From NCBI RefSeq assembly GCF_056746865.1, contig NZ_CM163382.1: a stretch of DNA of 64,000 nt. One strand, written 5' to 3'. The notes under the pieces were generated by a model. It saw nothing but the letters and a program-made list of their open reading frames with translations. It had not been told where the DNA came from and ran no database searches. Shown here piece after piece: positions 874-62,687 of this stretch. A program made the translations under genes and the position numbers. The stretch's first letter is position 1, and each line of letters opens with the position of its first letter.

Positions 874-2268
874 CTACTCTCTCCGTTCCGGCAATCTAAA
901 GTTAATCTTTTCCACATTAACAATATGGTGATTAATCCTGTCGATATCGACGGAGCTTTGCCCTCTTTCATTCACCGCATGAACATTTGCAAGAGACAGC
1001 AGTGTTTCTTTTTTCGCCATAAACACGCCGCGAACGTCTTTGCGCATGTCGAAGTTCATGCTCAATGCGGGTCCAACTGAGGATTCCTGCATCACATTGA
1101 TATTACGCATAAAAAGATGTTGCGGTTTGTTGTGTAACTCCAGCGACGCACGCTTCATCTCAATGTTAGTCAGCGCCACAAAGGAGACAGCATTCCCGGC
1201 GGAGATTTGAATGCCGCGCAATTTATAAGCAAGATGAGTATTATCCAGTTGAATATTATTCACCCGGAAATTCTGCGGTATCGAGAGATATTTGCCTTTA
1301 ATTACCCCATAGCCGATTAACATCCCGGCACTATTAATCATTTCAATATTATCAATCACAAAGTTGTCACAACCATAAATAGCAACTGTGGCGTTATCAA
1401 TACCTGCTTTCTTACTGAAATCCGGCGTGATATTACGGGCTTTGATATTACGAATAACAAAATGTTTACCATTTTCAACATGGATCAGTTGCCGACAATC
1501 CGATCCCGTGATATTCGCCACGACAAAGTTTTTCACTGCCTGGTCTTCCGGGTAGTTGTTATCATAAGTGCTTCCCGCAAGACCTATGCCAATGCCCCAG
1601 TTGATTTTGCCGTTAGTACAGTTGATGCGCTCGATGACATGGTCAGATATCAAAATATCACGGTCGTTAATCGCCACGTTCCATTCAATAGCGTCGCCCT
1701 GTAAGTCACTGAACTTACAGTTGGTGATGTTGGCACCGATAATCTGATTATGAAATCCCTGGCGTAAGATGGCGTAATTAGCGTGGCTGACAGTGAGGTT
1801 ATCGATGGTCAGGTTGCGCATGACCCGTTTGTTTTTGCCGCCGATATAAATCTGCGTTACCGGATCAAAGCCGCTCATCGCCAGCCCTTTGATGGTGCAG
1901 TCAGAGCCGCGCACATCCAGGGTGATGTTATGCATACTGCCGCCCTCCTCCCCTGTCACCTGGCTGCCGTCCTGTAAGACAAATCGCCCTCTGCCGTTGC
2001 CGCGCAAGCTTCCAAGAATGTGTAACGTTTTACCGGGAGGGATAAAGATGCCGGTGTTGATATTGTCACAAACCAATCCGCCAGGCACGACAACCGTTTG
2101 CCCTTCGCTGAAGGCTTGTTTAAATGAGGCGATCCAGTCGTGAGGGTTGTAGTCGTTAATGTTTACGCTTTGTCGGGCGGATAGTGCACGAGCGAAAGGG
2201 GTATGGAGGAAGGCAAGCGCCGAGCTTGCCGTCAGGAAGGTGCGTCGGGAGAGTTTTTTAAATGGCAT
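874..2268 (-). CDS. wcaM: colanic acid biosynthesis protein WcaM (464 aa; twin-arginine-like signal [20 protein letters not shown])
   Basis: ORF track 464 aa; length and position at distal end of wca cluster match WcaM. Confidence 0.9.
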
Positions 2269-4776: not shown

Positions 4777-4848
4777 TTTTTCCTCATAAATTTGATGCCA
4801 GGTGAGGCTATGTTTGTTGTGTTCGTTGCCGGAACCGAAAACAGCCAT

Positions 4849-6327
4849 TCACCCCGCCCGTAAAAGCATTTTCATTTTTTCGCTGCGACAAAACTGACGC
4901 TTCACTTCCACTACCAGCGGATGGCGTGACAGCACAATCATCACCACAAACGCCAGCACGCCTGCGGCTATTTGCACCGCCAGCAGCATCCCCAGCGCCA
5001 GTTGCCCTTTCAGCACAATGCCCAGCGCATAACTGACCGCCAGCGTCGGCAGCGAGAGATAAAACGGCAGCCATAAACTCAGGATGTATTGGCGATAACT
5101 GGAACCGAGCACCGGTTTAATCATCACGAAATAGCTCAGAATGGTGTTGATAATCTGCACCAGCAGGAAGCCAAGCGTGACGCCGATTGCGCCCGCCATC
5201 TGCCCACCAATAACAATCGCCGGAATAAACAGAAAGGTTTTGAATACGTTGAATTTAAAGCTGATATCGACCCGCGCTTTCGCCATCAGCAGCGAACCAA
5301 TCGGGTTCCCCACTGAGCGCAGCAGCCCCACCACACACAGCAATTGCAGCACCGGAATAATGCTGTTCCACTTCTCACCAAAGACCAGCGGTACAAAGTT
5401 ATTCGACACCACCATCAGCGCCAGCAGCGCCGGAAAGTTGATAATCCCCACTACCGACAGCAGCTTGTAGAAGTTAACGCGCAGCTTTTCGGTGTCGTCC
5501 TGAATTTTGGCAAATGCCGGAAACAACACGCGGGTGATGATTGGGTTCAGCTTCATCGGCGGCACAACGGCCACGTTGTACGCCAGGTTGTATCCCCCTG
5601 CTACGCCCGCGCCGAGAATACGCGCCAGCACCAGCGTTGAAAGGTTGGTGTTGAGATAGTTGATGATGCTGTCCGCCGTCAGCCAGGCACCAAAACGTAA
5701 GTTTGGTGCCACCGACGCCAGCGAGAAATGAAGACCGGGGCGATAAATTTTTCGACCAAAGTAGCCAAACAGCAGCGTTCTTACCGCACTATTGACCAGA
5801 TAACCGAGGATCGCGGTCATCGCCAGCGGCCAGAAATGGGCGCTAACCACCGTAAAAGTGAAGCCCGCCAGCACCGCGCTGGTTTCGATCATGCCGATTT
5901 TGTTGAACTCCAGCTCTTTTTGCATCAACGCGCGGAACTGCTGCCCGTGGGGGATCACCACAAACGCCAGCGACAATGTTTTAATCAACGGTGCCAGGTC
6001 CGGGTTATTCAGCACGTCGCCGATGAGATCACTCAACAAAAACACCGCCACACACACCACAAGCCCCAGCCCAACGTTCAGCCAGTACAGCGTGGTGAGT
6101 TCAAGGTGGCTGATTTCTTTTCGCTGAATAATCGAGTTAGCGATACCGAAGTCAGAAAGCGTATCTGCCAGCGCGATGATCACCAGCGACACGGTAAGCA
6201 AACCGAACTGGTGGTTGTCGATAATCCGCGCCAGCACGGTCATCTGCACCAGCCCGAGGCCGATGATGATCACCGTGGCAATCGCCGACCACTTCGCGCC
6301 GCTGATGGTTTTTTCACGTAAGCTCAT
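4849..6327 (-). CDS. wzxC: colanic acid repeat-unit flippase WzxC (492 aa, polytopic membrane protein)
   Basis: ORF track 492 aa; highly hydrophobic; synteny. Confidence 0.9.
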   Translation of the reverse strand: MSLREKTISGAKWSAIATVIIIGLGLVQMTVLARIIDNHQFGLLTVSLVIIALADTLSDFGIANSIIQRKEISHLELTTLYWLNVGLGLVVCVAVFLLSDLIGDVLNNPDLAPLIKTLSLAFVVIPHGQQFRALMQKELEFNKIGMIETSAVLAGFTFTVVSAHFWPLAMTAILGYLVNSAVRTLLFGYFGRKIYRPGLHFSLASVAPNLRFGAWLTADSIINYLNTNLSTLVLARILGAGVAGGYNLAYNVAVVPPMKLNPIITRVLFPAFAKIQDDTEKLRVNFYKLLSVVGIINFPALLALMVVSNNFVPLVFGEKWNSIIPVLQLLCVVGLLRSVGNPIGSLLMAKARVDISFKFNVFKTFLFIPAIVIGGQMAGAIGVTLGFLLVQIINTILSYFVMIKPVLGSSYRQYILSLWLPFYLSLPTLAVSYALGIVLKGQLALGMLLAVQIAAGVLAFVVMIVLSRHPLVVEVKRQFCRSEKMKMLLRAG

Positions 6328-6328
6328 A

Positions 6329-7723
6329 TCAATATGCCGCTTTGTTAACGAAGCCTTTGAATACCGTCAGGAAAACGATTTTGATATCGAACCAGACGCT
6401 CCATTCGCGGATGTACTCAAGGTCGAACTCGACGCGTTTTTCCATTTTCTCCAGCGTGTCGGTTTCGCCGCGCCAGCCGTTAATCTGCGCCCAGCCGGTA
6501 ATGCCCGGTTTCACCTTATGGCGCAGCATGTAGCCTTCAATGAGCTGTCGATACTGTTCGTTATGCGCCACCGCGTGTGGACGTGGCCCGACAATCGACA
6601 TCCCGCCAGTCAGCACATTGATAAACTGCGGCAATTCGTCCAGCGAGGTGCGGCGCAGAAAGTTCCCCACTTTGGTGACGCGCGGATCGTTCTGCGTCGC
6701 CTGGGTCACCACTTTGTCGTTCTCCATCACTTTCATCGAACGGAACTTCCACACTTTGATCGGCTTGCCATCCATGCCATAGCGAGTCTGGCGGAAAATA
6801 ACCGGTCCTGGTGAACTGAGTTTTACCGCCAGCGCAATACAGCACAGCACCGGGGAGATCAGCAGCAGGATAAGCGTTGCCAGCACAATGTCTTCTGCAC
6901 GTTTTATCAGGCGGTTAACCCCGGAAAGCGGCGTGTCATACAGCGGCACCACCGGTACGCCGTTCATCTCTTCGATACGTGAATGGAGAATGTTGAAGGT
7001 AAAGACGTCGGGGATCAGCAGCACCGAACAGGTGGTGTCCGCCAATTGATGGACCAGTTTTTTCACTCGCGCGCCGTCGCACATTTGCATCGCGATATAG
7101 ACGTTATGAATCTTGCCCGCTTTTGCATCCTCTACCAGCTGTTGCAGATTGCCCGCCCAGTCGTTAGAAACGCCGCCCGGTTTTGGGTCGTGGTATACGC
7201 CCACCACTTCAAACCCTAACCACGGCTGATTACGGAAGCTCTCCATCAGCATTTGTCCGGCGGCTAAATCCCCCGCTACGGCGACCATGCGCTTGTTATA
7301 GCCATGATTACGCAGCCAGCCCGCCCCAATGCGAATACATGAACGGCAAACCACCAGTCCGATACTGGTCAGCCCATACCACGCCAGCCAGATTTTCAGT
7401 TGCGTGTCGAAATCATTGTTGAACGCCACCAGTCCGGCGCTGAAAATCACGCTTAAGGTCCAGTTTTGTAGCAGCAGGGCAAATTCTGTCGCTGCCCGAA
7501 CACCGCGCCATGAGCGATAAAAATCGGTGATGCCGCCCAACATCTGGAACACCACCAGCGTAATCAGCGCCACCAACAGGTGCATGTAGAGGAATGACAG
7601 TCCGCTCACTTCGCAAACCAGCCATAGTCCGGCAAACATGATGGTGATATCTGAAAAGCGTTGCACCATAGAGATTAACGATGCATTGGTTTTCGCTCGC
7701 TCGCGCTTTTTTAGATTTGTCAT
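6329..7723 (-). CDS. wcaJ: undecaprenyl-phosphate glucose-1-phosphate transferase WcaJ (464 aa)
   Basis: ORF track 464 aa; N-terminal TM segments plus C-terminal sugar transferase motif (VGPRPHAVAHNEQY, DELPQF); synteny. Confidence 0.9.
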   Translation of the reverse strand: MTNLKKRERAKTNASLISMVQRFSDITIMFAGLWLVCEVSGLSFLYMHLLVALITLVVFQMLGGITDFYRSWRGVRAATEFALLLQNWTLSVIFSAGLVAFNNDFDTQLKIWLAWYGLTSIGLVVCRSCIRIGAGWLRNHGYNKRMVAVAGDLAAGQMLMESFRNQPWLGFEVVGVYHDPKPGGVSNDWAGNLQQLVEDAKAGKIHNVYIAMQMCDGARVKKLVHQLADTTCSVLLIPDVFTFNILHSRIEEMNGVPVVPLYDTPLSGVNRLIKRAEDIVLATLILLLISPVLCCIALAVKLSSPGPVIFRQTRYGMDGKPIKVWKFRSMKVMENDKVVTQATQNDPRVTKVGNFLRRTSLDELPQFINVLTGGMSIVGPRPHAVAHNEQYRQLIEGYMLRHKVKPGITGWAQINGWRGETDTLEKMEKRVEFDLEYIREWSVWFDIKIVFLTVFKGFVNKAAY

Positions 7724-7742
7724 CGTTGTTCCTGTTATTAGC

Positions 7743-7766
7743 CCCTTACCCGTAATGGGGTAAGGG
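7743..7766 (-). other. intra-operon stem-loop between cpsG and wcaJ (9-bp stem cccttaccc / gggtaaggg, 6-nt loop)
   Basis: Perfect inverted repeat read directly in the 54-bp cpsG-wcaJ gap. Confidence 0.3.
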
Positions 7767-7777
7767 AAGATCCGACA

Positions 7778-9148
7778 TTACTCGTTCAGCAACGTCAGCA
7801 GAGTTCGCGTTCGCGCTTCCATCAGCGGCACATCACCGCGTGATTCCACATTCAACCGCACCACCGGCTCGGTGTTGGAGGAGCGCAGATTAAAGCGCCA
7901 GTCGGCAAAGGTCATGCTGATGCCATCGGTGCGATCCACCGCCAGCGCCTCGCGGCTAAAGTGCTGTTCCACGCGGTTAATCGCCTCAACGGGTTGTGCC
8001 AGTTTGCTGTTGATCTCACCGCTTGCCGGAAACGCCGCCATCCGGTCGCGCACCAGTTCGCCCAGCGTTTTTCCTTTCAGGCACACCAGTTCGGCGACCA
8101 GCAGCCACGGGATCATGCCGCTGTCGCAGTAAGCGAAATCACGGAAGTAATGGTGGGCGCTCATTTCGCCACCGTAGATAGCGTCTTCCTTGCGCATACG
8201 TTCTTTAATAAAGGCGTGTCCGGTTTTCGACATTACCGGGGTGCCGCCTGCGGCAGTCACCACATCAACGGTGTTCCAGGAGAGACGTGGATCGTGGATG
8301 ATCTTCGCGCCGGGATTTTTTTCGAGGAATGCTTCTGCCAGCAGGCCGACAATGTAGTAGCCCTCAATAAACTGCCCTTTTTCGTCAAACAGGAAACAGC
8401 GGTCAAAATCGCCATCAAAGGCAATGCCCATATCCGCGCCGTGTTTGATGACCGCATTACGGGTGTCGTCGCGGCATTCCGGCAGCAACGGGTTAGGAAT
8501 ACCGTTGGGGAAATTGCCGTCCGGCGTGTTGTGCACTTTGATTAATTCCACTGGTGCGCCGAGGGCTTTAAAGCGGGCTTCAATGGCGTCCACCACCGGA
8601 CCCGCTGCGCCGTTCCCGGAGTTGATCACCAGCTTGAGCGGCGTGAGGTTTTTGACATTGATATAACCGAACAGGTGATCAACGTAAGCGTCACGCAGGT
8701 TGATTTGCCGATAGCGACCGCGTTTGGTTTCATCGACGGGAGGAAAGTCGTTGGCTTCAGCCAGACGCTGGACGTCGCGCAGTCCGGTATCACCGCTGAT
8801 CGGGCGAGCCCCCTCGCGCACCAGCTTCATGCCGTTATAATCCATCGGATTATGGCTGGCGGTAACTTCAATGCCGCCATCCACGCCGAGATGGAACGTG
8901 GCGAAATAGATCTCTTCGGTGCCGGACATGCCGATATCCAGCACATCGACGCCCGCATCCTGTAAACCTCTCGCCAGCGCCAGTTTTAAGGTTTCGCTGG
9001 TGAGGCGGACATCACCGCCTAACACAATGGTTTTCGGTTTGAGAAATTCGCCATAAGCGCGACCAATGCGCCAGGCAATATCTTCATTCAGTTCTTCGCC
9101 TAATTTCCCGCGAATATCATAGGCTTTAAAGCAGGTTAATTTTTTCAT
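7778..9148 (-). CDS. cpsG: phosphomannomutase CpsG/ManB (456 aa)
   Basis: ORF track frame 7778..9196; start placed at ATG giving [17 protein letters not shown]...; phosphohexomutase active-site context TASHNP present. Confidence 0.92.
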
Positions 9149-9237
9149 ATCGTTACCCTTTTTCAGGCAATAGTTGGCCCTGACCGAAGCGGCCAATTTT
9201 GTTTTTGTCGTTATTTACACCGCGGTTTCGCATTCAT

Positions 9238-9340
<103 letters not shown>

Positions 9341-9345
<5 letters not shown>

Positions 9346-10777
9346 CCCGTCCGTAGCGATCCGCGAAACGCACCACATCATCCTCTTCGAGATAAGAGCC
9401 GGAGCGCACTTCAATTAAATCGAGCGGAATTTTCCCCGGGTTTTCCAGGCAGTGCGTCGCCCCCAGCGGAATATAAATCGACTCGTTTTCACCAAGCAGT
9501 TTGATATCACCGTCGATAGTGACTTTTGCCGTTCCCGCGACCACTACCCAGTGTTCCGCGCGATGATGATGCATCTGTACCGACAAGCCTTCGCCCGGTT
9601 TCACGGTGATGCGTTTCACCTGGTAGCGGTCGCCCGCGTCGATAGAGTCATATTTGCCCCACGGGCGATAGACTTCGCGATGCACCCGATGCTCATGGCG
9701 ACCATCGGCTTTGATCTGCTCGACCACTTTTTTCACATCCTGCACCGCGTTACGGTCGGCAATCAGCACCGCATCTTTGGTCTGCACCACCACCAGATCT
9801 TTCACCCCGACGGTGGTGACCAGGCCAGATTCGGCGTACACATAGCTGTTTTCAGTTTTGTGATTAATCACATCGCCGTGGCAAACGTTGCCTTCCGCGG
9901 TGTGGGCGCTGATCTCCCATAAAGAGGACCAGGAACCGACATCGCTCCAGCCCGCATCCATCGGCACCACAACGGCATCTGCCGTACGTTCCATGACCGC
10001 GTAATCCACCGACTCTTCCGGGCAGGCCAGAAACGCTTCTTCATCCACGCGAATAAAATCGAGATCCGGATCGACGGCGCTCATCGCTTTTTCACAGGCG
10101 TCGAGAATATCCGGGCGATATTTTTTCAGTTCTTCGAGATAGCGTCCGGCGCGGAACAGGAACATACCGCTGTTCCAGTAATATTCGCCGCTTGCCACAT
10201 AGGCCTGAGCGGTTTCCAGATTCGGTTTTTCGACAAACTGCGCCACTTCAAAGGCCACCGTATCCTGCTCACCCGCCGACACTTCACCGCGACGAATATA
10301 GCCATAACCGGTTTCAGGTAGATCCGGCACAATGCCGAAGGTCACCAGCTTGCCCGCTTCGGCATATGGCATGGCATTACGCACGGCGGCACGGAACGCG
10401 TCTTCATCGGCAATCACATGATCCGCCGCCAGCACCAGCATTAACGGGTCGCTCTCCGGACTATGACGTGTTGCCGCCAGCGCCGCCAGCGCAATGGCTG
10501 GTGCAGTGTTACGCCCTGCCGGTTCGAGAATAATGTTCTCGGTGAGTTTGTTCAGTTGGCGCAGCTGTTCCGCGACAATAAAGCGGTGCTGCTCATTGCA
10601 AATCACCACCGGGCTTTCGCACTCTACGCCTTTCAGGCGGCAGATGGTGGTTTGCAGCATGGTGAGATCGCCTTTCAGGCATAAAAACTGCTTGGGGTAA
10701 AGTACGCGGGAAAGCGGCCATAAGCGGCTACCGGAGCCACCTGCCATCACAACTGGATAGAGTTTCGACTGCGCCAT
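9341..10777 (-). CDS. cpsB: mannose-1-phosphate guanylyltransferase CpsB/ManC (478 aa)
   Basis: ORF track 478 aa; N-terminal nucleotidyltransferase motif ([16 protein letters not shown]), C-terminal cupin-type region; synteny. Confidence 0.92.
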
Positions 10778-10779
10778 AA

Positions 10780-12003
10780 TTATCCCCGAATATCATTTAT
10801 AAATTGACGTAACACGTTCTCTTTATCGAGCGTGCGTTCGGCATATTCACGTGCCACCGTGTTGTGTTTGGGCAGCAGGAGCGCCTGACGAATCCCCGCC
10901 ACCAGCGCCTCGACCGATTCCGGTTCAACGCAAACCGCAATGCCCGGAAAGGTTTCGCAAAGCTGTCCCAGTTCTGTGTGGGCTTCTGCAGTAATCACCG
11001 CGTTACCGCCTACCGCCAGAATATTGGTCAGTTTCGACGGCAATACGGCATCTGCCGCGCCGCGTTTTTGCACCACCAGATGGCAATCCCCCATCTTCAG
11101 CAGTGCGGGTAAAGCGTCATACGATTGCAGCGGGAAGAATTGCATGTTGTGCAGTCCACGCTGCTGCGCCATTTTTTCCAGCCGCGCTTTGCCGCCGCCC
11201 TGCCCGACAATGGCAAAAATCAGCGGTTCATCACGCAGGCGTTCGGCAGCTTCAATAACGTTTTCCAGCCCCTGCTTTTCACCAATATTGCCGGAGTAAA
11301 GAATGATTTTTTTGTTATCCGGCAGGCCAAGCTGGTTACGAAGTGCATCAACATCGGCGTCTGCAACATGCTGAAAACGGGCGATTTCCGACCAGTTGGG
11401 GAAGAAGATGACGTTTTCCGCCGCCACGCCTTTATCGATGGCTTTATTCATCATCGAACGCGAAATCGTGGAGACGTTATCGACGTTATGCAGTCCGCTA
11501 CGTTCGAACGCCGTCGCCAGCTGTGCCACTTTGCCGCCTTTGCCTTTTCCGGCAAGGCCCAGCCCCAGCATGGCATCTACTTCGTAATCCTGAATATGCA
11601 GCACGGTACGCGCACCAGAGAGTTTCGCCAGCAGGCGCATTCCCGGCGTGCAAAACAGCGTTGGCACCACGCCGATAATGCGATCCGGCTTCCAGCGACG
11701 TTGCGCCATCAGAGGAAAGAAACTGCTGACGGCAAAACTGCCGAGATGTAACAGACGTTTCAGGGTGCTCGGCTGTTTTGGCACGTACAGCGGGCAGCGC
11801 CACACCGTGGCGGCCCCCTCTTCTCGTTTGTACCGCCAGGCGGAATAGTTCTCGCCCACCTGCCATTGCGGGTAGTAAGGCGGTGCGGTAATAACCCGCA
11901 CCTCATGACCTTGTGCCGCCAGCCATTCCACCATCTCTCCGGTGTATTTGCCGATGCCGGTTAACTCCGGCGAGTAGTTAATGCCGTAGACCAGTATTTT
12001 CAT
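10780..12003 (-). CDS. wcaI: colanic acid glycosyltransferase WcaI (407 aa)
   Basis: ORF track 407 aa; GT4-like; synteny. Confidence 0.9.
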
Positions 12004-19654: not shown

Positions 19655-19696
19655 AGGTTGTTCTCCCGGCTTATGAGCTTGTTTGCTTGCCGGATG

Positions 19697-19732
19697 CGGC
19701 GTGAGCGCCTTATCCGGCCTACGGGGCGGTGC
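19697..19732. repeat. REP element (gccggatgcggcgtgagcgccttatccggcctac)
   Basis: REP consensus-like palindrome in the wzc-wcaA gap. Confidence 0.5.
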
Positions 19733-19746
19733 GAATGCAGGTGTCG

Positions 19747-22360: not shown

Positions 22361-23500
22361 TTACCAGTTATGAATGTCGCTGGCTGTATCCGTCATGTAA
22401 CGGACACCGCTAATAGTTGGCAGCAACTGATTGATCAGACGGTTCCAGCGGGAAACCGGGGCGGTGGTGACATACACCACGTCATAAGGTTGCAGGCGGA
22501 ATTCTGTCGCCATCACCAGCGACGTCGCATCGGACATATCCAGCTGGTAGATATTGGCAATCTTGCCGTTACGCCCGCCCTCGCCTTTCAACGGACGAAT
22601 GACAAAGATGCCGCTGGCGTTGGAGGTGGTCATGTCGATGCCTTCGGCATTGCCCAGAGCTTCAGTCAGGGTCATGCCGCTAAAGTCCATTTTCAGGGTG
22701 CTCTGTTTCTTCACTTCACCCATCACAAATACTTTCAGATCATCATTACGCGGCACGTAGAGAATATCGCCGGGATAAAGCAGTCGGTTCTGATTGAGGT
22801 CGCCGTTTTGCATCAGCGCCTGCAAAGAAATGCGTTCTTCACGACCATTGTGTGTTAGCACCACGTTGCGCCAGTCAGCGGTGTCGGTCAGACCACCTGC
22901 GGCGTTGATGGCGTCGAGAATGGTCAGTGGTACGTTGGTGATCGCCTGTTGACCGGATTTATTCACCTGACCTGAGATATAGGCCTTTTGCGAGCGGAAG
23001 GCGGCGATATTAACGTCCACCTGCGGGTCAGCGATGTACGTCGCTAAGCGCCCGGTAATATCACTGCGGATTTCAGCGAGCGTTTTCCCGACTACGTGGA
23101 CCTTGCCGATATACGGGTAAAACATAGTGCCGTCAGGCTGTACCCAGTTGCCGGTGTCGCTGGAGCTGCGGTACTGACCGGCTGGCGTGGTGAGTTCCGG
23201 GTGATCCCAGACGGTGACATTAAGAACGTCCCCCGGCCCGACGCGATACTGGTAATTCGCGATCTCACTTTCCAGCGTCATATTGGGGCGCGCTACATTC
23301 GGGCGTGGGCGTAATTGGTCAATCAGGCGCGGGGTCAGCGGATAAACATTCACCATTTTGTCGAGATCGAAATCAGCGTCCTGCTGTTTGATGACGTCTT
23401 TGCCCATCGTCGACATATTGCTGCCCGGAAGTACTGTGCAACCGCTTATCAAGGTTACTGACACCAATAATGGCATCAATTTCATTTTGGATTTCATCAT
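22361..23500 (-). CDS. wza: outer-membrane polysaccharide export lipoprotein Wza (379 aa)
   Basis: ORF track 379 aa; lipoprotein signal ending LISGC; first gene of the cluster. Confidence 0.92.
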
Positions 23501-23678: not shown

Positions 23679-23690
23679 CACGCTACCGCC
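23679..23690 (-). promoter_or_regulatory. ops element (GGCGGTAGCGTG on the transcribed strand) within a JUMPstart-type leader of the wza operon; RfaH recruitment site
   Basis: Plus strand reads cacgctaccgcc; reverse complement is the 12-nt ops consensus GGCGGTAGnnTG; ~180 nt upstream of the wza start codon. Confidence 0.6.
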
Positions 23691-25749: not shown

Positions 25750-25786
25750 TCAAATGCGCAGGTTCAAACTGCGCATTTGATTTATA
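25750..25786 (+). terminator. rho-independent terminator-like hairpin after yegH (tcaaatgcgcag-gttcaaa-ctgcgcatttga then T-rich)
   Basis: 12-bp perfect inverted repeat followed by tttat, read directly. Confidence 0.5.
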
Positions 25787-29994: not shown

Positions 29995-32900
29995 ATGAGC
30001 AAACAATCACAGCATGTATTAATTGCCCTGCCCCACCCGCTGCTTCACCTGGTCAGTTTAGGTTTAGTCTCGTTTATCTTTACCCTTTTCTCGCTTGAGC
30101 TTTCGCAGTTTGGCACCCAACTCGCCCCACTGTGGTTCCCGACGTCCATCATGATGGTGGCGTTTTATCGCCATGCCGGGCGTATGTGGCCGGGGATTGC
30201 GCTGAGCTGCTCACTGGGAAATATCGCCGCATCCATCCTGCTTTTTTCCACCAGCTCGCTGAACATGACCTGGACGACCATCAATATTGTTGAAGCCGTG
30301 GTCGGGGCAGTGCTACTGCGTAAATTGCTGCCGTGGTATAACCCATTGCAAAATCTGGCTGACTGGCTGCGTCTGGCACTCGGCAGCGCCATTGTTCCGC
30401 CTCTGTTGGGGGGTGTTCTGGTTATCCTGCTGACGCCCGGAGACGATCCTCTCAGGGCATTTTTGATATGGGTACTGTCAGAATCCATCGGCGCACTGGC
30501 ACTGGTGCCGCTGGGGTTGTTATTTAAACCACACTATCTGCTGCGCCATCGCAACCCACGGTTGCTTTTTGAGTCGCTGCTCACGTTAGCCATCACACTG
30601 ACGTTAAGCTGGCTTTCGATGCTGTATCTGCCGTGGCCTTTTACTTTCATTATTGTGCTGTTGATGTGGAGCGCCGTGCGCCTGCCACGAATGGAAGCCT
30701 TTTTGATCTTCCTTACCACGGTGATGATGGTGTCACTGATGATGGCCGCGGATCCCTCCCTGCTTGCTACGCCGCGTACATACCTGATGAGCCATATGCC
30801 GTGGCTACCGTTTTTGCTGATCCTGCTGCCCGCCAACATCATGACCATGGTGATGTATGCCTTTCGTGCGGAACGCAAACACATTTCCGAAAGCGAAACC
30901 CGCTTTCGGAACGCGATGGAATATTCCGCTATCGGTATGGCGTTAGTGGGCACCGAGGGACAATGGCTGCAATCCAACAAAGCACTCTGCCAGTTTCTCG
31001 GTTACAGTCAGGAAGAGCTGCGCGGACTCACCTTTCAGCAACTGACCTGGCCGGAGGATCTCAATAAAGATCTGCAACAGGTTGAAAAGCTGATCAGCGG
31101 TGAAATAAACACCTATTCAATGGAAAAACGCTACTACAACCGCAATGGCGATGTTGTCTGGGCGTTGCTTGCCGTCTCACTGGTGCGCCACACGGATGGC
31201 ACGCCGCTCTATTTTATCGCTCAGATTGAAGACATTAACGAGCTAAAACGCACCGAACAGGTGAATCAGCAACTGATGGAGCGCATCACGCTGGCTAACG
31301 AAGCGGGCGGGATTGGCATCTGGGAGTGGGAGCTTAAGCCGAATATTTTTAGCTGGGATAAGCGGATGTTCGAGCTGTATGAAATTCCTCCGCATATCAA
31401 ACCGAACTGGCAGGTGTGGTACGAGTGCGTGCTGCCGGAAGATCGCCAGCATGCCGAAAAAGTGATTCGTGATTCGTTGCAATCACGCTCTCCCTTTAAA
31501 CTGGAATTTCGCATTACCGTGAAAGACGGCATTCGCCATATCCGCGCCCTCGCTAACCGGGTACTGAATAAAGAAGGCGAAGTCGAACGCCTGCTCGGCA
31601 TTAATATGGATATGACCGAGGTAAAACAGCTTAACGAGGCATTGTTTCAGGAAAAAGAGCGCCTGCACATTACGCTGGATTCCATCGGCGAAGCCGTGGT
31701 CTGTATTGATATGGCAATGAAAATTACCTTTATGAATCCGGTGGCGGAGAAGATGAGCGGCTGGACGCAGGAAGAAGCGTTAGGTGTTCCACTCCTGACG
31801 GTGTTGCATATTACTTTTGGCGACAACGGACCATTAATGGAGAACATTTACAGTGCCGACACCTCACGTTCCGCGATTGAACAAGATGTGGTGTTGCACT
31901 GCCGAAGCGGCGGCAGCTACGACGTGCATTACAGTATTACGCCGTTAAGTACTCTGGACGGCAGCAATATTGGTTCGGTTCTGGTGATTCAGGACGTCAC
32001 CGAATCGCGCAAAATGCTGCGCCAGCTGAGCTACAGCGCCTCCCATGATGCACTGACGCATCTCGCCAATCGCGCCAGTTTTGAGAAGCAACTACGCATC
32101 CTGCTGCAAACGGTAAACAGTACACATCAGCGACATGCACTGGTGTTTATCGATCTTGATCGCTTTAAAGCGGTGAATGACAGCGCCGGGCACGCCGCTG
32201 GCGACGCTTTACTGCGCGAACTGGCGTCATTGATGCTGAGTATGCTGCGCTCCAGCGACGTGCTGGCGCGACTCGGTGGCGATGAATTTGGTCTGCTGCT
32301 GCCAGATTGTAATGTCGAAAGTGCGCGTTTTATCGCTACACGCATTATCAGCGCCGTGAATGACTATCACTTTATCTGGGAAGGACGTGTACATCGGGTA
32401 GGTGCCAGTGCCGGGATTACCTTGATTGATGACAACAATCATCAGGCGGCTGAAGTGATGTCGCAGGCTGATATCGCCTGTTATGCCTCCAAAAATGGTG
32501 GCCGGGGCCGGGTGACGATTTACGAACCGCAGCAAGCTGCCGCACATAGCGAACGGGCGGCGATGTCGCTTGATGAACAGTGGCGGATGATTAAAGAGAA
32601 TCAGTTGATGATGATCGCCCACGGTGTCGCTTCGCCGCGGATCCCGCAAGCGCGTAATTTGTGGCTGATTTCACTTAAGCTCTGGAGTTGCGAAGGCGAG
32701 ATTATTGATGAACAAACATTTCGTCGTAGCTTCAGCGATCCGGCACTTAGCCATGCTCTTGACCGACGGGTATTCCACGATTTTTTCCAGCAGGCCGCCA
32801 AAGCGGTTGCCAGTAAAGGTATAAGCATCGCCCTCCCGCTTTCCGTTGCCGGTTTGAGTAGCGCCACGCTGGTGAATGAACTAATTGAGCAGCTGGAAAA

Positions 32901-33328: not shown

Positions 33329-33353
33329 GCCTGATGCGGCGTATCAGGCCTAC
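33329..33353. repeat. REP element (gcctgatgcggcgtatcaggcctac) in the dgcE-alkA convergent gap, overlapping the alkA stop codon
   Basis: REP-like palindrome read directly. Confidence 0.45.
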
Positions 33354-38314: not shown

Positions 38315-38378
38315 CCAGCCATTATATTAATTGCTTAAACTGGCGGTTGAACTGTTGTCTTCAACCGCCATGCGATGT

Positions 38379-50203: not shown

Positions 50204-51603
50204 AGTTCTGGCGACCCGGTATTACCGGCAAACTGTTTCTGGCGATTTTCGCCACCTGCATTGTCTTGCTGATCAGTATGCACTGGGCGGTGCGTATCAG
50301 TTTTGAGCGTGGCTTTATTGATTACATCAAGCATGGTAATGAACAGCGATTACAACTGTTAAGTGATGCGCTTGGCGAGCAGTATGCGCAGCATGGCAAC
50401 TGGCGCTTCCTGCGCAACAATGATCGCTTTGTCTTTCAGATCTTGCGTTCATTTGAACACGATAATTCGGAAGATAAACCCGGCCCGGGTATGCCGCCGC
50501 ACGGCTGGCGTACCCAGTTCTGGGTGGTCGATCAAAACAACAAAGTGCTGGTTGGTCCGCGAGCGCCGATTCCACCTGACGGTACACGGCGACCCATTCT
50601 GGTCAACGGTGCGGAAGTGGGTGCGGTGATTGCCTCCCCTGTTGAGCGACTGACCCGCAATACTGATATCAATTTCGATAAACAACAGCGGCAAACCAGC
50701 TGGCTGATTGTTGCTCTGGCAACGTTACTCGCGGCACTCGCTACCTTTCTGCTGGCGCGTGGTTTGCTGGCACCGGTAAAACGGCTGGTGGACGGCACGC
50801 ACAAACTGGCGGCGGGCGATTTCACTACCCGCGTAACGCCCACCAGTGAAGATGAACTGGGCAAACTGGCGCAAGACTTCAACCAGCTTGCCAGCACGCT
50901 GGAGAAAAACCAGCAAATGCGGCGCGATTTTATGGCCGATATTTCTCACGAACTGCGTACGCCATTAGCGGTGCTGCGCGGTGAACTGGAAGCCATTCAG
51001 GATGGCGTGCGTAAATTCACGCCGGAGACGGTGGCGTCTTTACAGGCGGAGGTCGGTACACTGACCAAACTGGTTGACGATCTCCATCAGTTGTCGATGT
51101 CTGATGAAGGCGCTCTCGCCTATCAAAAAGCACCGGTAGATTTGATCCCACTGCTGGAAGTGGCGGGCGGCGCATTTCGCGAACGATTCGCCAGCCGTGG
51201 CCTGAAACTGCAATTTTCCCTGCCAGACAGTATTACCGTATTTGGCGATCGCGACCGTTTAATGCAGTTATTCAATAACTTACTGGAAAACAGCCTGCGC
51301 TACACTGACAGCGGCGGTAGCCTGAAAATCTCTGCCGGGCAGCACGACAAAACGGTGCGACTGACCTTTGCCGACAGCGCGCCGGGCGTCAGTGACGATC
51401 AGCTACAAAAATTGTTTGAACGTTTTTATCGCACCGAAGGTTCCCGCAACCGAGCCAGCGGCGGTTCCGGGCTGGGGCTGGCGATTTGCCTGAACATTGT
51501 TGAAGCACATAATGGTCGCATTATTGCTGCCCATTCGCCTTTTGGCGGGGTAAGCATTACAGTAGAGTTACCGCTGGAACGGGATTTACAGAGAGAAGTA
51601 TGA
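50200..51603 (+). CDS. baeS: envelope-stress sensor histidine kinase BaeS (467 aa)
   Basis: ORF track 467 aa; H-box [11 protein letters not shown]; 4-nt overlap with mdtD. Confidence 0.92.
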
Positions 51604-52501: not shown

Positions 52502-52834
52502 ATGGCTGGTTGGTTTGAACTCAGTAAAAGCAGTGATAATCAATTTCGGTTTGTGCTAAAAGCGGGCAATGGTGAGACTATCCTTACCAGCGAGCTGTAT
52601 ACCTCAAAAGCCTCTGCGGAAAAGGGCATCGCGTCGGTGCGTAGCAACAGCCCGCAAGAAGAACGCTATGAGAAAAAAACGGCAAGCAACGGCAAATTCT
52701 ATTTCAATCTGAAAGCCGCTAATCATCAAATTATCGGCTCCAGCCAGATGTACGCCACCGCGCAATCTCGTGAAACCGGAATTGCCTCCGTTAAAGCCAA
52801 TGGCACAAGCCAGACGGTGAAAGACAATACGTAA
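52502..52834 (+). CDS. yegP: YegP (tandem DUF1508/UPF0339 repeats, 110 aa)
   Basis: ORF track frame 52463..52834; start placed at ATG 52502 (MAGWFELSKSSDNQFRF) after SD aaggag; internal duplication visible. Confidence 0.85.
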   Translation: MAGWFELSKSSDNQFRFVLKAGNGETILTSELYTSKASAEKGIASVRSNSPQEERYEKKTASNGKFYFNLKAANHQIIGSSQMYATAQSRETGIASVKANGTSQTVKDNT

Positions 52835-52981
52835 TTACGATGCCGGGCGTGGGTTGTTGGCGTCCGGCGCTTTACCAGCTCCCCCCTACAGCGCTACAAT
52901 GCCCGCCCTTAAAGTGGGGGCACTCCCCTGGCCGCTTCATCAGGTGAAGCGGATCTGACCTGTCATCAGAACGAGAGAATT

Positions 52982-54343
52982 ATGTTTAAACCGGAACTCC
53001 TTTCCCCGGCGGGAACGCTGAAAAATATGCGTTACGCTTTCGCTTATGGCGCAGATGCTGTTTATGCGGGCCAGCCGCGTTACTCCCTGCGTGTGCGCAA
53101 CAACGAATTTAACCACGAAAATCTCCAGCTCGGCATCAATGAAGCCCACGCGCTGGGGAAAAAGTTTTATGTCGTGGTCAACATTGCACCGCACAACGCC
53201 AAGCTGAAAACCTTTATCCGTGACCTGAAACCGGTGGTGGAAATGGGGCCGGATGCGCTGATTATGTCCGATCCAGGGCTGATTATGCTGGTGCGTGAGC
53301 ACTTCCCTGAAATGCCGATCCATCTCTCGGTACAGGCTAACGCCGTGAACTGGGCGACGGTGAAATTCTGGCAGCAAATGGGCCTGACCCGCGTGATCCT
53401 CTCTCGCGAGCTGTCGCTGGAAGAGATTGAAGAGATCCGCAATCAGGTGCCGGATATGGAGGTAGAGATCTTCGTTCACGGCGCGCTGTGCATGGCCTAC
53501 TCCGGTCGCTGCCTGCTCTCTGGCTATATCAACAAGCGCGACCCGAACCAGGGCACCTGCACCAACGCCTGCCGCTGGGAATACAACGTCCAGGAAGGGA
53601 AAGAAGATGACGTTGGCAACATCGTACACAAGTACGAGCCGATTCCGGTGCAAAATGTTGAGCCGACGCTGGGTATCGGCGCACCAACCGACAAAGTGTT
53701 TATGATCGAAGAGGCCCAGCGTCCGGGCGAGTATATGACCGCGTTTGAAGATGAGCACGGCACTTACATCATGAACTCGAAAGATCTGCGCGCCATCGCC
53801 CATGTAGAACGCCTGACCAAAATGGGAGTGCATTCGCTGAAAATCGAAGGCCGTACCAAATCTTTCTACTATTGCGCACGCACCGCGCAGGTTTACCGTA
53901 AAGCTATCGATGACGCAGCTGCGGGAAAACCATTCGATACCAGCCTGCTGGAAACTCTGGAAGGTCTGGCGCATCGTGGCTATACCGAAGGTTTCCTGCG
54001 TCGTCATACTCACGACGATTATCAGAACTACGAATACGGTTATTCAGTTTCTGACCGCCAGCAGTTTGTTGGTGAGTTTACCGGTGAGCGCAAGGGCGAC
54101 CTCGCGGCGGTAGCGGTGAAAAATAAATTCTCCGTTGGTGACAGCCTTGAGCTGATGACGCCGCAAGGCAACATTAACTTTACCCTTGAGCACATGGAAA
54201 ACGCCAAAGGTGAAGCTATGCCGGTCGCACCAGGCGATGGTTATACTGTGTGGCTCCCGGTCCCGCAGGATCTTGAGCTAAATTACGCGCTCCTGATGCG
54301 TAATTTCTCCGGGGAAACCACGCGTAACCCCCACGGTAAGTGA
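52982..54343 (+). CDS. yegQ: peptidase U32-family protein YegQ (tRNA hydroxylation protein TrhP-like, 453 aa)
   Basis: ORF track 453 aa beginning MFKPELLSPAGTLKNMRYAFAYGADAVYAGQPRYSLR. Confidence 0.9.
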   Translation: MFKPELLSPAGTLKNMRYAFAYGADAVYAGQPRYSLRVRNNEFNHENLQLGINEAHALGKKFYVVVNIAPHNAKLKTFIRDLKPVVEMGPDALIMSDPGLIMLVREHFPEMPIHLSVQANAVNWATVKFWQQMGLTRVILSRELSLEEIEEIRNQVPDMEVEIFVHGALCMAYSGRCLLSGYINKRDPNQGTCTNACRWEYNVQEGKEDDVGNIVHKYEPIPVQNVEPTLGIGAPTDKVFMIEEAQRPGEYMTAFEDEHGTYIMNSKDLRAIAHVERLTKMGVHSLKIEGRTKSFYYCARTAQVYRKAIDDAAAGKPFDTSLLETLEGLAHRGYTEGFLRRHTHDDYQNYEYGYSVSDRQQFVGEFTGERKGDLAAVAVKNKFSVGDSLELMTPQGNINFTLEHMENAKGEAMPVAPGDGYTVWLPVPQDLELNYALLMRNFSGETTRNPHGK

Positions 54344-56340: not shown

Positions 56341-56371
56341 TGCCGGATGCGGTATAAACACCTTATCCGGC
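56341..56371. repeat. REP element (tgccggatgcggtataaacaccttatccggc) in the yegS-gatR convergent gap
   Basis: REP-like palindrome read directly. Confidence 0.45.
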
Positions 56372-56384
56372 ATACAGAACAATA

Positions 56385-57164: not shown

Positions 57165-57263
57165 TTACCCATATTCAATTGTGGCTAGTGTAAACGAAGG
57201 GGGACCATTGGTGAATGATCTGTTTTGCACAATACCGGGCCAGCATCACGCTGGCCCGCGGTT

Positions 57264-60487: not shown

Positions 60488-62687
<2,200 letters not shown>

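Follow-up and report, generated by a model that had tools for sequence, protein, structure and literature searches.

The window, the 64,000-nucleotide stretch of DNA analyzed here, is Escherichia coli sequence that matches strain AR13438 with 100% identity. The colanic acid (wca/cps) operon runs along the minus strand of the first 23.5 kb (Table 1). Its expression is low under standard conditions, and one of its products, WcaJ, is the initiating transferase, which commits scarce undecaprenyl phosphate. The presence of an ops element upstream of wza, together with the JUMPstart-RfaH antitermination described for the wca operon (PMC9976346), argues for transcription read-through. A second, ops-like match, GGCGGTAGCCTG, on the plus strand at 51313-51324, falls inside baeR and probably occurs by chance.

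Only four spacers in the operon are longer than 30 nt, namely, wzc-wcaA (92 nt), cpsB-cpsG (192 nt), cpsG-wcaJ (54 nt) and wzxC-wcaK (72 nt). Each of the four has a predicted structure, and the first two of them include REPs. The wzc-wcaA spacer (19655-19746) has a single REP at 19688-19722, inverted in the mRNA, and its predicted fold has an energy of -36.9 kcal/mol (z = -2.6); colanic acid and K30-type clusters are reported to have a stem-loop transcriptional attenuator downstream of wzc (PMC2516531, PMC3438125). The wzxC-wcaK spacer (4777-4848), 72 nt long in the window vs 275 nt in K-12, is a third repeat-prone gap, with REPs reported in K-12 and BoxC-type repeats in other genera; in the window, its fold is weak and no better than that of shuffled sequence (z = -1.4). 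Outside the operon, a ParD/ParE-family toxin-antitoxin pair, annotated between yegP and yegQ in AR13438 (window ~52635-53229; L095 3635-4229), may be a strain-variable insertion.

The two structures considered below are a hairpin in the cpsG-wcaJ gap and a BIME in the cpsB-cpsG gap. A first-pass annotation of the window had pointed to both of them, and its gene names, gene positions and placement of the two structures are correct.

Table 1. Genes, signals and structured elements of the colanic acid operon in the window
Feature	Position	Strand	Remarks
wcaM	874..2268	-	annotation of 100%-identical genome
wcaJ	6329..7723	-	annotation of 100%-identical genome
Unstructured spacer with wcaJ ribosome-binding site	7724..7741	-	AGGA at 7730-7733
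cpsG-wcaJ intercistronic hairpin	7742..7767	-	fold, covariation, stem conservation, BoxC-core match
cpsG stop codon UAA	7778..7780	-	
cpsG	7778..9148	-	annotation of 100%-identical genome; AUG 9146-9148
algC RNA motif (Rfam RF02929)	9153..9202	-	candidate cis-regulatory; cpsG 5' leader
z2-type REP GCCTGATGCGACGCTGCCGCGTCTTATCAGGCCTAC	9239..9274	+	inverted relative to mRNA
Linker between REP tails (tail-to-tail)	9275..9285	.	11 nt
y-type REP GTCGGATGCGGCGTGAACGCCTTATCCGACCTAC	9286..9319	-	sequence in mRNA sense
Partial REP GCCTGATGCGACG	9327..9339	+	13 nt; 1 nt from cpsB stop
cpsB	9341..10777	-	annotation of 100%-identical genome; stop codon 9341-9343
wza	22361..23500	-	annotation of 100%-identical genome
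ops element GGCGGTAGCGTG, exact	23679-23690	-	5' of wza; fits RfaH control

The cpsG-wcaJ hairpin and its relation to BoxC

In the mRNA, the hairpin reads 5'-UCCCUUACCC-CAUUAC-GGGUAAGGGG-3'. The perfect 9-bp hairpin at 7743-7766 given in the first-pass annotation is confirmed: the arms, 7743-7751 and 7758-7766, form nine Watson-Crick pairs around a 6-nt loop, and a closing U.G on the mRNA strand lengthens the stem to 10 bp, the extent given in Table 1. The stem starts 10 nt 3' of the cpsG UAA. After it comes GCUAAUAACAGGAACAACG-AUG, a stretch without a U-tract in which the wcaJ Shine-Dalgarno sequence is left free; the part of it that contains the ribosome-binding site (RBS), ACAGGAACAACG-AUG, is almost invariant between genera. 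The predicted folding energy of the 36-nt segment with the hairpin is -17.1 kcal/mol, a stability reached by 0 of 200 shuffles (z = -3.6); in a 76-nt context, z is only -1.9. In E. coli, the antisense fold is marginally more stable than the sense one (-18.2 vs -17.1).

Perfect hairpins of at least 9 bp are not rare in the window, with 10 (9 distinct) found vs 2.3 expected from shuffles, so that 9-bp perfection by itself is weak evidence, and the comparative evidence is stronger. Other such hairpins, with loops of 3-8 nt, lie at 5686-5710 (within the wzxC coding sequence), 25753-25777, 30886-30910, 38343-38368, 57236-57258 and 61697-61718. A scan of positions 6000-11000 against Rfam, with E values up to 10, gave no match on the hairpin.

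For the comparison, 80 WcaJ loci were fetched, one genome per species, and the cpsG-wcaJ spacers were extracted, yielding a set of 72, from 71 related Enterobacteriaceae species and the window. In 71 of these 72 spacers, the gap contains a stem of 5 bp or more; as the species are related, this count is not one of independent events. In one Citrobacter (L029), the stem is largely lost. The stem starts at a median distance of 7 nt past the cpsG stop codon (5-12 nt in half of the spacers, and at most 15 nt in 65 of the 71 species) and ends at a median of 20 nt before the wcaJ AUG, whatever the length of the spacer (39-357 nt). Short spacers (46-67 nt) contain a simple hairpin of 8-11 bp, with a stem sequence that depends on the genus. 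In 49 of the 71 spacers, the sense strand forms the more stable fold of the two strands (Wilcoxon p = 5e-4, with species that are not independent).

When 14 spacers of Escherichia, Salmonella and Citrobacter were aligned, 97.8% of the cells were paired, compared with 44-66% with slid partners. Double changes were detected in three of the ten stem pairs of this alignment, including A-U to G-C at 7:7, and the covariation score observed was reached by no shuffle. Identity to the window, expressed as the mean over 12 relatives, is 0.87 for the hairpin stem, 0.42 for its loop and 0.69-0.74 for its flanks, compared with 0.58 and 0.57 at the four-fold degenerate sites of cpsG and wcaJ, respectively; the stretch from the wcaJ RBS to the AUG reaches 0.96. 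The hairpin variants found within E. coli likewise differ mostly in the loop. Because the stem is conserved and its changes are compensatory, the comparison indicates that the helix has been maintained by purifying selection in the short-spacer clade.

The hairpin spacer is found in 4129 of the 5426 complete E. coli genomes (76%). The 54-nt spacer matches a median of one place per genome, so that the hairpin does not qualify as a dispersed repeat. Its sequence nevertheless resembles that of one. BoxC elements, also denoted PIT or TMECO, follow the pattern CCCTCNCCC-N3-6-GGGNGAGGG-N3-GGGNGAGGG (PMC4666352), and 33 copies of about 56 bp are listed for K-12 (PMC5172473). The window hairpin, CCCTTACCC-N6-GGGTAAGGG, corresponds to blocks one and two of BoxC, apart from two substitutions that compensate each other, and is the only BoxC-core match in the 64-kb window (vs 0.16 in shuffles). 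The third block is absent from the hairpin, GCTAATAAC being the sequence that comes after the stem. Nor is the window hairpin dispersed in about 30 copies per E. coli genome; a 57-nt query comprising a full BoxC matches a median of 29 places per genome, and one BoxC copy of K-12 lies upstream of fabI.

The long cpsG-wcaJ spacers contain nested palindromes, CCCCTCACCC-taa-CCCTCTCCCC...GGGGAGAGGG-ccg-GGGTGAGGGG, that match the published BoxC/PIT/TMECO pattern. These palindromes are dispersed repeats and recur in the wzxC-wcaK and cpsB-cpsG gaps of the same loci. Full TMECO motifs were identified in 23 of 75 cpsG-wcaJ spacers. Within E. coli, bona fide BoxC copies occupy the position equivalent to that of the hairpin: a full TMECO lies in the same spacer of strains EC2 (81-nt spacer, L091 1478-1558, an allele found in 26 genomes), E69 (127 nt), APEC IMT5155 (135 nt) and JML285 (126 nt), with the loci of the latter three among L006, L093 and L094. 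Such full BoxC alleles are carried by a minority of E. coli strains, and the spacer comes in at least four allele classes within the species. The EC2 allele is close to Enterobacter spacers, which may reflect recombination in an exchange-prone region beside the O-antigen locus. The hairpin of the window is most likely a locus-specific, single-copy, minimal BoxC/TMECO derivative in which, of the BoxC blocks, only the C-rich arm and the first of the G-rich arms are left.

The BIME-2 and the algC motif between cpsB and cpsG

The BIME next to cpsB consists of a z2-type and a y-type REP in tail-to-tail orientation, followed by a partial REP that is a direct repeat of 9239-9251, 88 bp apart, and bounds an 88-bp BIME-2 unit. 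A BIME-2, in the classification of Gilson, Bachellier and Hofnung for the REP/PU clusters of E. coli, is defined by y and z2 REPs with a short linker, arranged in tandem units, the copy number of which varies among strains (PMC3333891); binding and cleavage by DNA gyrase and recognition by TnpA-REP are biochemical properties of the class. The element in the window has all the sequence features: its y and z2 units are imperfect palindromes with the GTAG/CTAC tail, the two opposed REPs are separated by only 11 nt, and the 88-bp unit is represented by 0, 1, 2 or 3 exact tandem copies among E. coli strains. Five REP-tail motifs were counted in the window vs 0.06 expected; two REP-tail matches outside the operon, at 33340-33353 and 56362-56375 (+), have one mismatch each. 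The predicted fold of the 171-nt BIME region (-74 kcal/mol, z = -5.2) takes in the cpsB stop codon. The BIME was also evaluated as a possible naRNA4 (the REP325-derived nucleoid RNA, RF02564), but its score of 35-39 bits vs a gathering score of 59.5 reflects generic REP similarity, and this candidate was rejected.

The multi-REP BIME that the first-pass annotation placed at 9238-9345 is real, with the correction that the last 5 nt of this range belong to cpsB. That annotation further located both structures exactly at the boundaries of cpsG, which holds for the hairpin, 10 nt past the stop codon, but not for the BIME, which abuts the cpsB stop codon and is separated from the cpsG start by about 90 nt.

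The allele survey covered a spread sample of 60 of the 5434 E. coli records. One unit, as in the window, was found in 28 records, two units in six, and zero units, as in K-12, in nine; a single y REP was present in one record, and five were REP-free. In two records, cpsB was unmatched (one sequenced, L005, has three units), and in nine, the cpsB-cpsG locus was unmatched. K-12 MG1655 lacks the 88-bp unit and retains only the partial REP. Elsewhere in the Enterobacteriaceae, the cpsB-cpsG gap usually, albeit not always, contains lineage-specific REPs. Indels of REPs at cpsG-cpsB, wcaK-wzxC and wcaA-wzc, tied to recombination junctions, have been described by Iguchi et al. 2011 (PMC3158064), the only publication retrieved in a literature search with spacer names such as cpsG-wcaJ. 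Being absent in K-12 and roughly a quarter of the sampled E. coli and varying from 0 to 3 units, the BIME cannot be a fixed part of the operon design; it is a dispensable, strain-variable accessory of a known kind, rather than a conserved part of the operon.

The gap between the BIME and cpsG contains the algC RNA motif, which ends 4 nt before the cpsG AUG. The match scores 77.3 bits, well over the gathering score of 33.8, covers all model positions 1-52, and lies upstream of a phosphomannomutase gene, as do members of this family. Apart from two single-base differences, the motif is unchanged in the six sequenced E. coli BIME alleles. In about 58 of 70 Enterobacteriaceae species, the same pattern is observed, a sequence-variable hairpin and then a near-invariant GGGCYRACUGUUGCCUGAARAAGGG that leads into the RBS. 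When the algC regions were aligned with MAFFT and analyzed with RNAalifold, the variable hairpin was not recovered; the output was a weak GGGCYR/UUGCCU helix, in which the changes are one-sided and wobble-compatible. At the 5' boundary of cpsG, this predicted motif is the element that is conserved. It had escaped the first-pass annotation, as had the BoxC relationship of the hairpin and the published REP indels at the locus.

Possible roles of the hairpin and the BIME

We propose, with a probability of roughly 0.45, that the hairpin and the BIME are palindromic-repeat-derived stem-loops in the RfaH-dependent wca mRNA, and that the hairpin functions post-transcriptionally, as an exonuclease barrier and RBS insulator. 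We infer this role, and any effect of the hairpin on mRNA decay and expression ratios, from the anatomy of the gap and from REP precedents, that is, REP hairpins described as exonuclease barriers and stabilizers (Newbury 1987; Khemici & Carpousis 2004; both as summarized in PMC12306157 and PMC3333891). Under this proposal, the mRNA would be cleaved in the AU-rich spacer, the hairpin would then block 3'-to-5' exonucleases, and the wza...cpsG part of the transcript would survive longer than the wcaJ-wcaM part. The hairpin would also keep the wcaJ RBS unpaired, with about 20 nt left to the AUG, and the BIME-2 would exert the same generic REP-stabilizer effect on the wza...cpsB segment.

Protection of upstream mRNA from decay by both structures had already been suggested in the first-pass annotation. 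For the hairpin, the suggestion is indirectly supported by the stem identity, the compensatory changes and the retention of a stem in 71 of 72 spacers, whereas for the variable BIME, the case is weak. The accompanying idea that the structures set the expression of precursor genes against that of assembly genes is applicable to the hairpin only, given that the BIME splits cpsB from cpsG, two genes of the same precursor pathway.

Several observations count against the role favored here. In tests by the Maher laboratory, as summarized in PMC4666352, PIT/BoxC elements had neither promoter nor terminator activity and left RNA polymerase unaffected. The cpsG-wcaJ slot is held by differing elements even within E. 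coli, and the BIME is missing in K-12 and other strains that have no known colanic acid defect. In addition, the antisense fold is slightly more stable than the sense fold in E. coli, and the stem is largely lost in the Citrobacter spacer. Four supplementary files of Adams 2021 contain no mention of cpsG, wcaJ, cpsB or wzxC.

The variability of the locus is what would be expected if the two structures were neutral or selfish palindromic repeats that spread and decay in permissive gaps, with effects at the DNA level only, such as recombination or indel hot spots or gyrase binding. BIME copies vary from 0 to 3, single-REP and REP-free alleles exist, and variation in the number of tandem BIME-2 units among strains is a known property of this class; at least four allele classes coexist in the cpsG-wcaJ gap of E. 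coli; the same three gaps carry a local repeat family in other genera; the REP indels coincide with recombination junctions (PMC3158064); and BoxC/TMECO loci have been linked to genomic instability, with regulatory activity not demonstrated (PMC4666352). However, neutral repeats would not be expected to show a stem identity of 0.87, well above that of four-fold degenerate sites (0.58) and of the loop (0.42), or compensatory changes, and the simple hairpin is a single-copy element, not a dispersed one, with a stem kept at a fixed distance to the RBS in nearly all spacers. Template switching from arm to arm could keep the arms complementary but could not keep their sequence identical across genera. 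On the whole, we regard this reading, the main alternative to the role proposed above, as rather unlikely.

The proximity of both structures to stop codons brings in translation. A structure within 15 nt of a stop codon might stall terminating ribosomes, leading to mRNA cleavage and tmRNA recruitment, in which case the hairpin would lower the amount of CpsG and the BIME that of CpsB. The distances of both the hairpin and the BIME from the respective stop codons fall within the 15-nt rule (Liang, Rudd & Deutscher 2015, as summarized in PMC12306157): the stem begins 10 nt past the cpsG stop, and at most 15 nt past it in 65 of 71 species, and the fold of the BIME includes the cpsB stop, with the partial REP 1 nt away. 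But this rule was established with REPs rather than with BoxC-like hairpins of 10 bp, and short spacers force any structure to lie near the stop, making the proximity unspecific. Such a translation brake appears quite improbable.

Attenuation of read-through, also suggested in the first-pass annotation, would require partial termination, intrinsic or Rho-dependent, that lowers the transcription of downstream genes. Attenuation associated with BIMEs has been reported (Espeli 2001, as cited in PMC12306157 and PMC3333891), and the attenuator after wzc provides a precedent in the same type of gene cluster. Intrinsic termination, however, is excluded, because there is no U-tract and no terminator call. 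A GC-rich stem-loop directly followed by a U-tract is found at neither site, and the terminator scan and the sigma-70 promoter scan left both the hairpin and the BIME sites uncalled; past the stem, the U-tract is missing in E. coli, and a U-rich tail (at least 5 T in 8 nt) was detected in 0 of the 71 orthologous cpsG-wcaJ spacers. Rho-dependent attenuation is rendered less likely by RfaH on the elongation complex, given that the operon has ops/JUMPstart and that RfaH suppresses Rho (PMC9976346). The lack of terminator activity in the PIT/BoxC tests summarized above also argues against attenuation, which we consider highly improbable.

An extension of the exonuclease-barrier and RBS-insulator reading is that the gap after cpsG is under selection for any stable hairpin with a C-arm and a G-arm, be it minimal or a full BoxC/TMECO, with about 20 nt left for the wcaJ RBS. 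We consider this broader version unlikely; if it is true, BoxC elements would be RNA-level intercistronic stabilizers or insulators.

Nothing here is categorically new; BoxC elements, the algC motif and the polymorphism of the REP/BIME cluster at this locus have all been described already. The modest novelty lies in the hairpin common in E. coli, a conserved, single-copy derivative of the BoxC core in a slot that holds a stable stem in 71 of the 72 Enterobacteriaceae spacers. If the hairpin sets the ratio of the upstream genes (export, polymerase, GDP-fucose) to the downstream ones (wcaJ, wzxC, wcaK-M), this would help explain WcaJ limitation and would be the first RNA-level role for a BoxC-type palindrome. 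The two gaps offer a natural allelic series, with the simple hairpin or BoxC variants at cpsG-wcaJ and 0 to 3 BIME units at cpsB-cpsG.

Comparison with known elements

The element between cpsB and cpsG differs in nothing essential from the BIME-2 class. It combines inverted y and z2 REPs, a short linker, tandem amplification and strain-variable copies, 0 to 3 units at this locus, and it is extragenic, at the 3' end of a gene inside an operon. The neighboring segment 9153-9202 resembles the algC family (RF02929) in its score of 77 bits and its location upstream of the phosphomannomutase gene, and is separate from both the hairpin and the BIME.

Like BoxC/PIT/TMECO elements, the hairpin has a C-rich arm, a 6-nt loop and a G-rich arm in the same order, with arms that are one compensated pair away from the BoxC consensus, and it sits in the slot that a full BoxC occupies in other strains and genera. 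Unlike them, it has no third G-rich block, so that a triplex is impossible; it is single-copy rather than dispersed; and it is conserved in Salmonella, where TMECO has been reported to be absent.

The attenuator downstream of wzc, reported for colanic acid and group 1 capsule clusters, is likewise a stem-loop internal to a polysaccharide operon under RfaH control, and a role in the differential expression of gene blocks has been proposed for it, the same kind of proposal as that made here for the hairpin. It lies at a different junction, wzc-wcaA, where the window has a single REP. The cpsG-wcaJ hairpin lacks terminator features. Finally, the hairpin differs from the REP stabilizers of malE-malF and hisJ-hisQ, a functional class marked by decay intermediates that end at the stem base and by a longer half-life of the upstream segment, in that its sequence is not a REP, but it shares with them a stable, GC-rich intercistronic stem-loop without a U-tract, placed such that it could block 3'-exonucleases and create differential stability of the mRNA segments.
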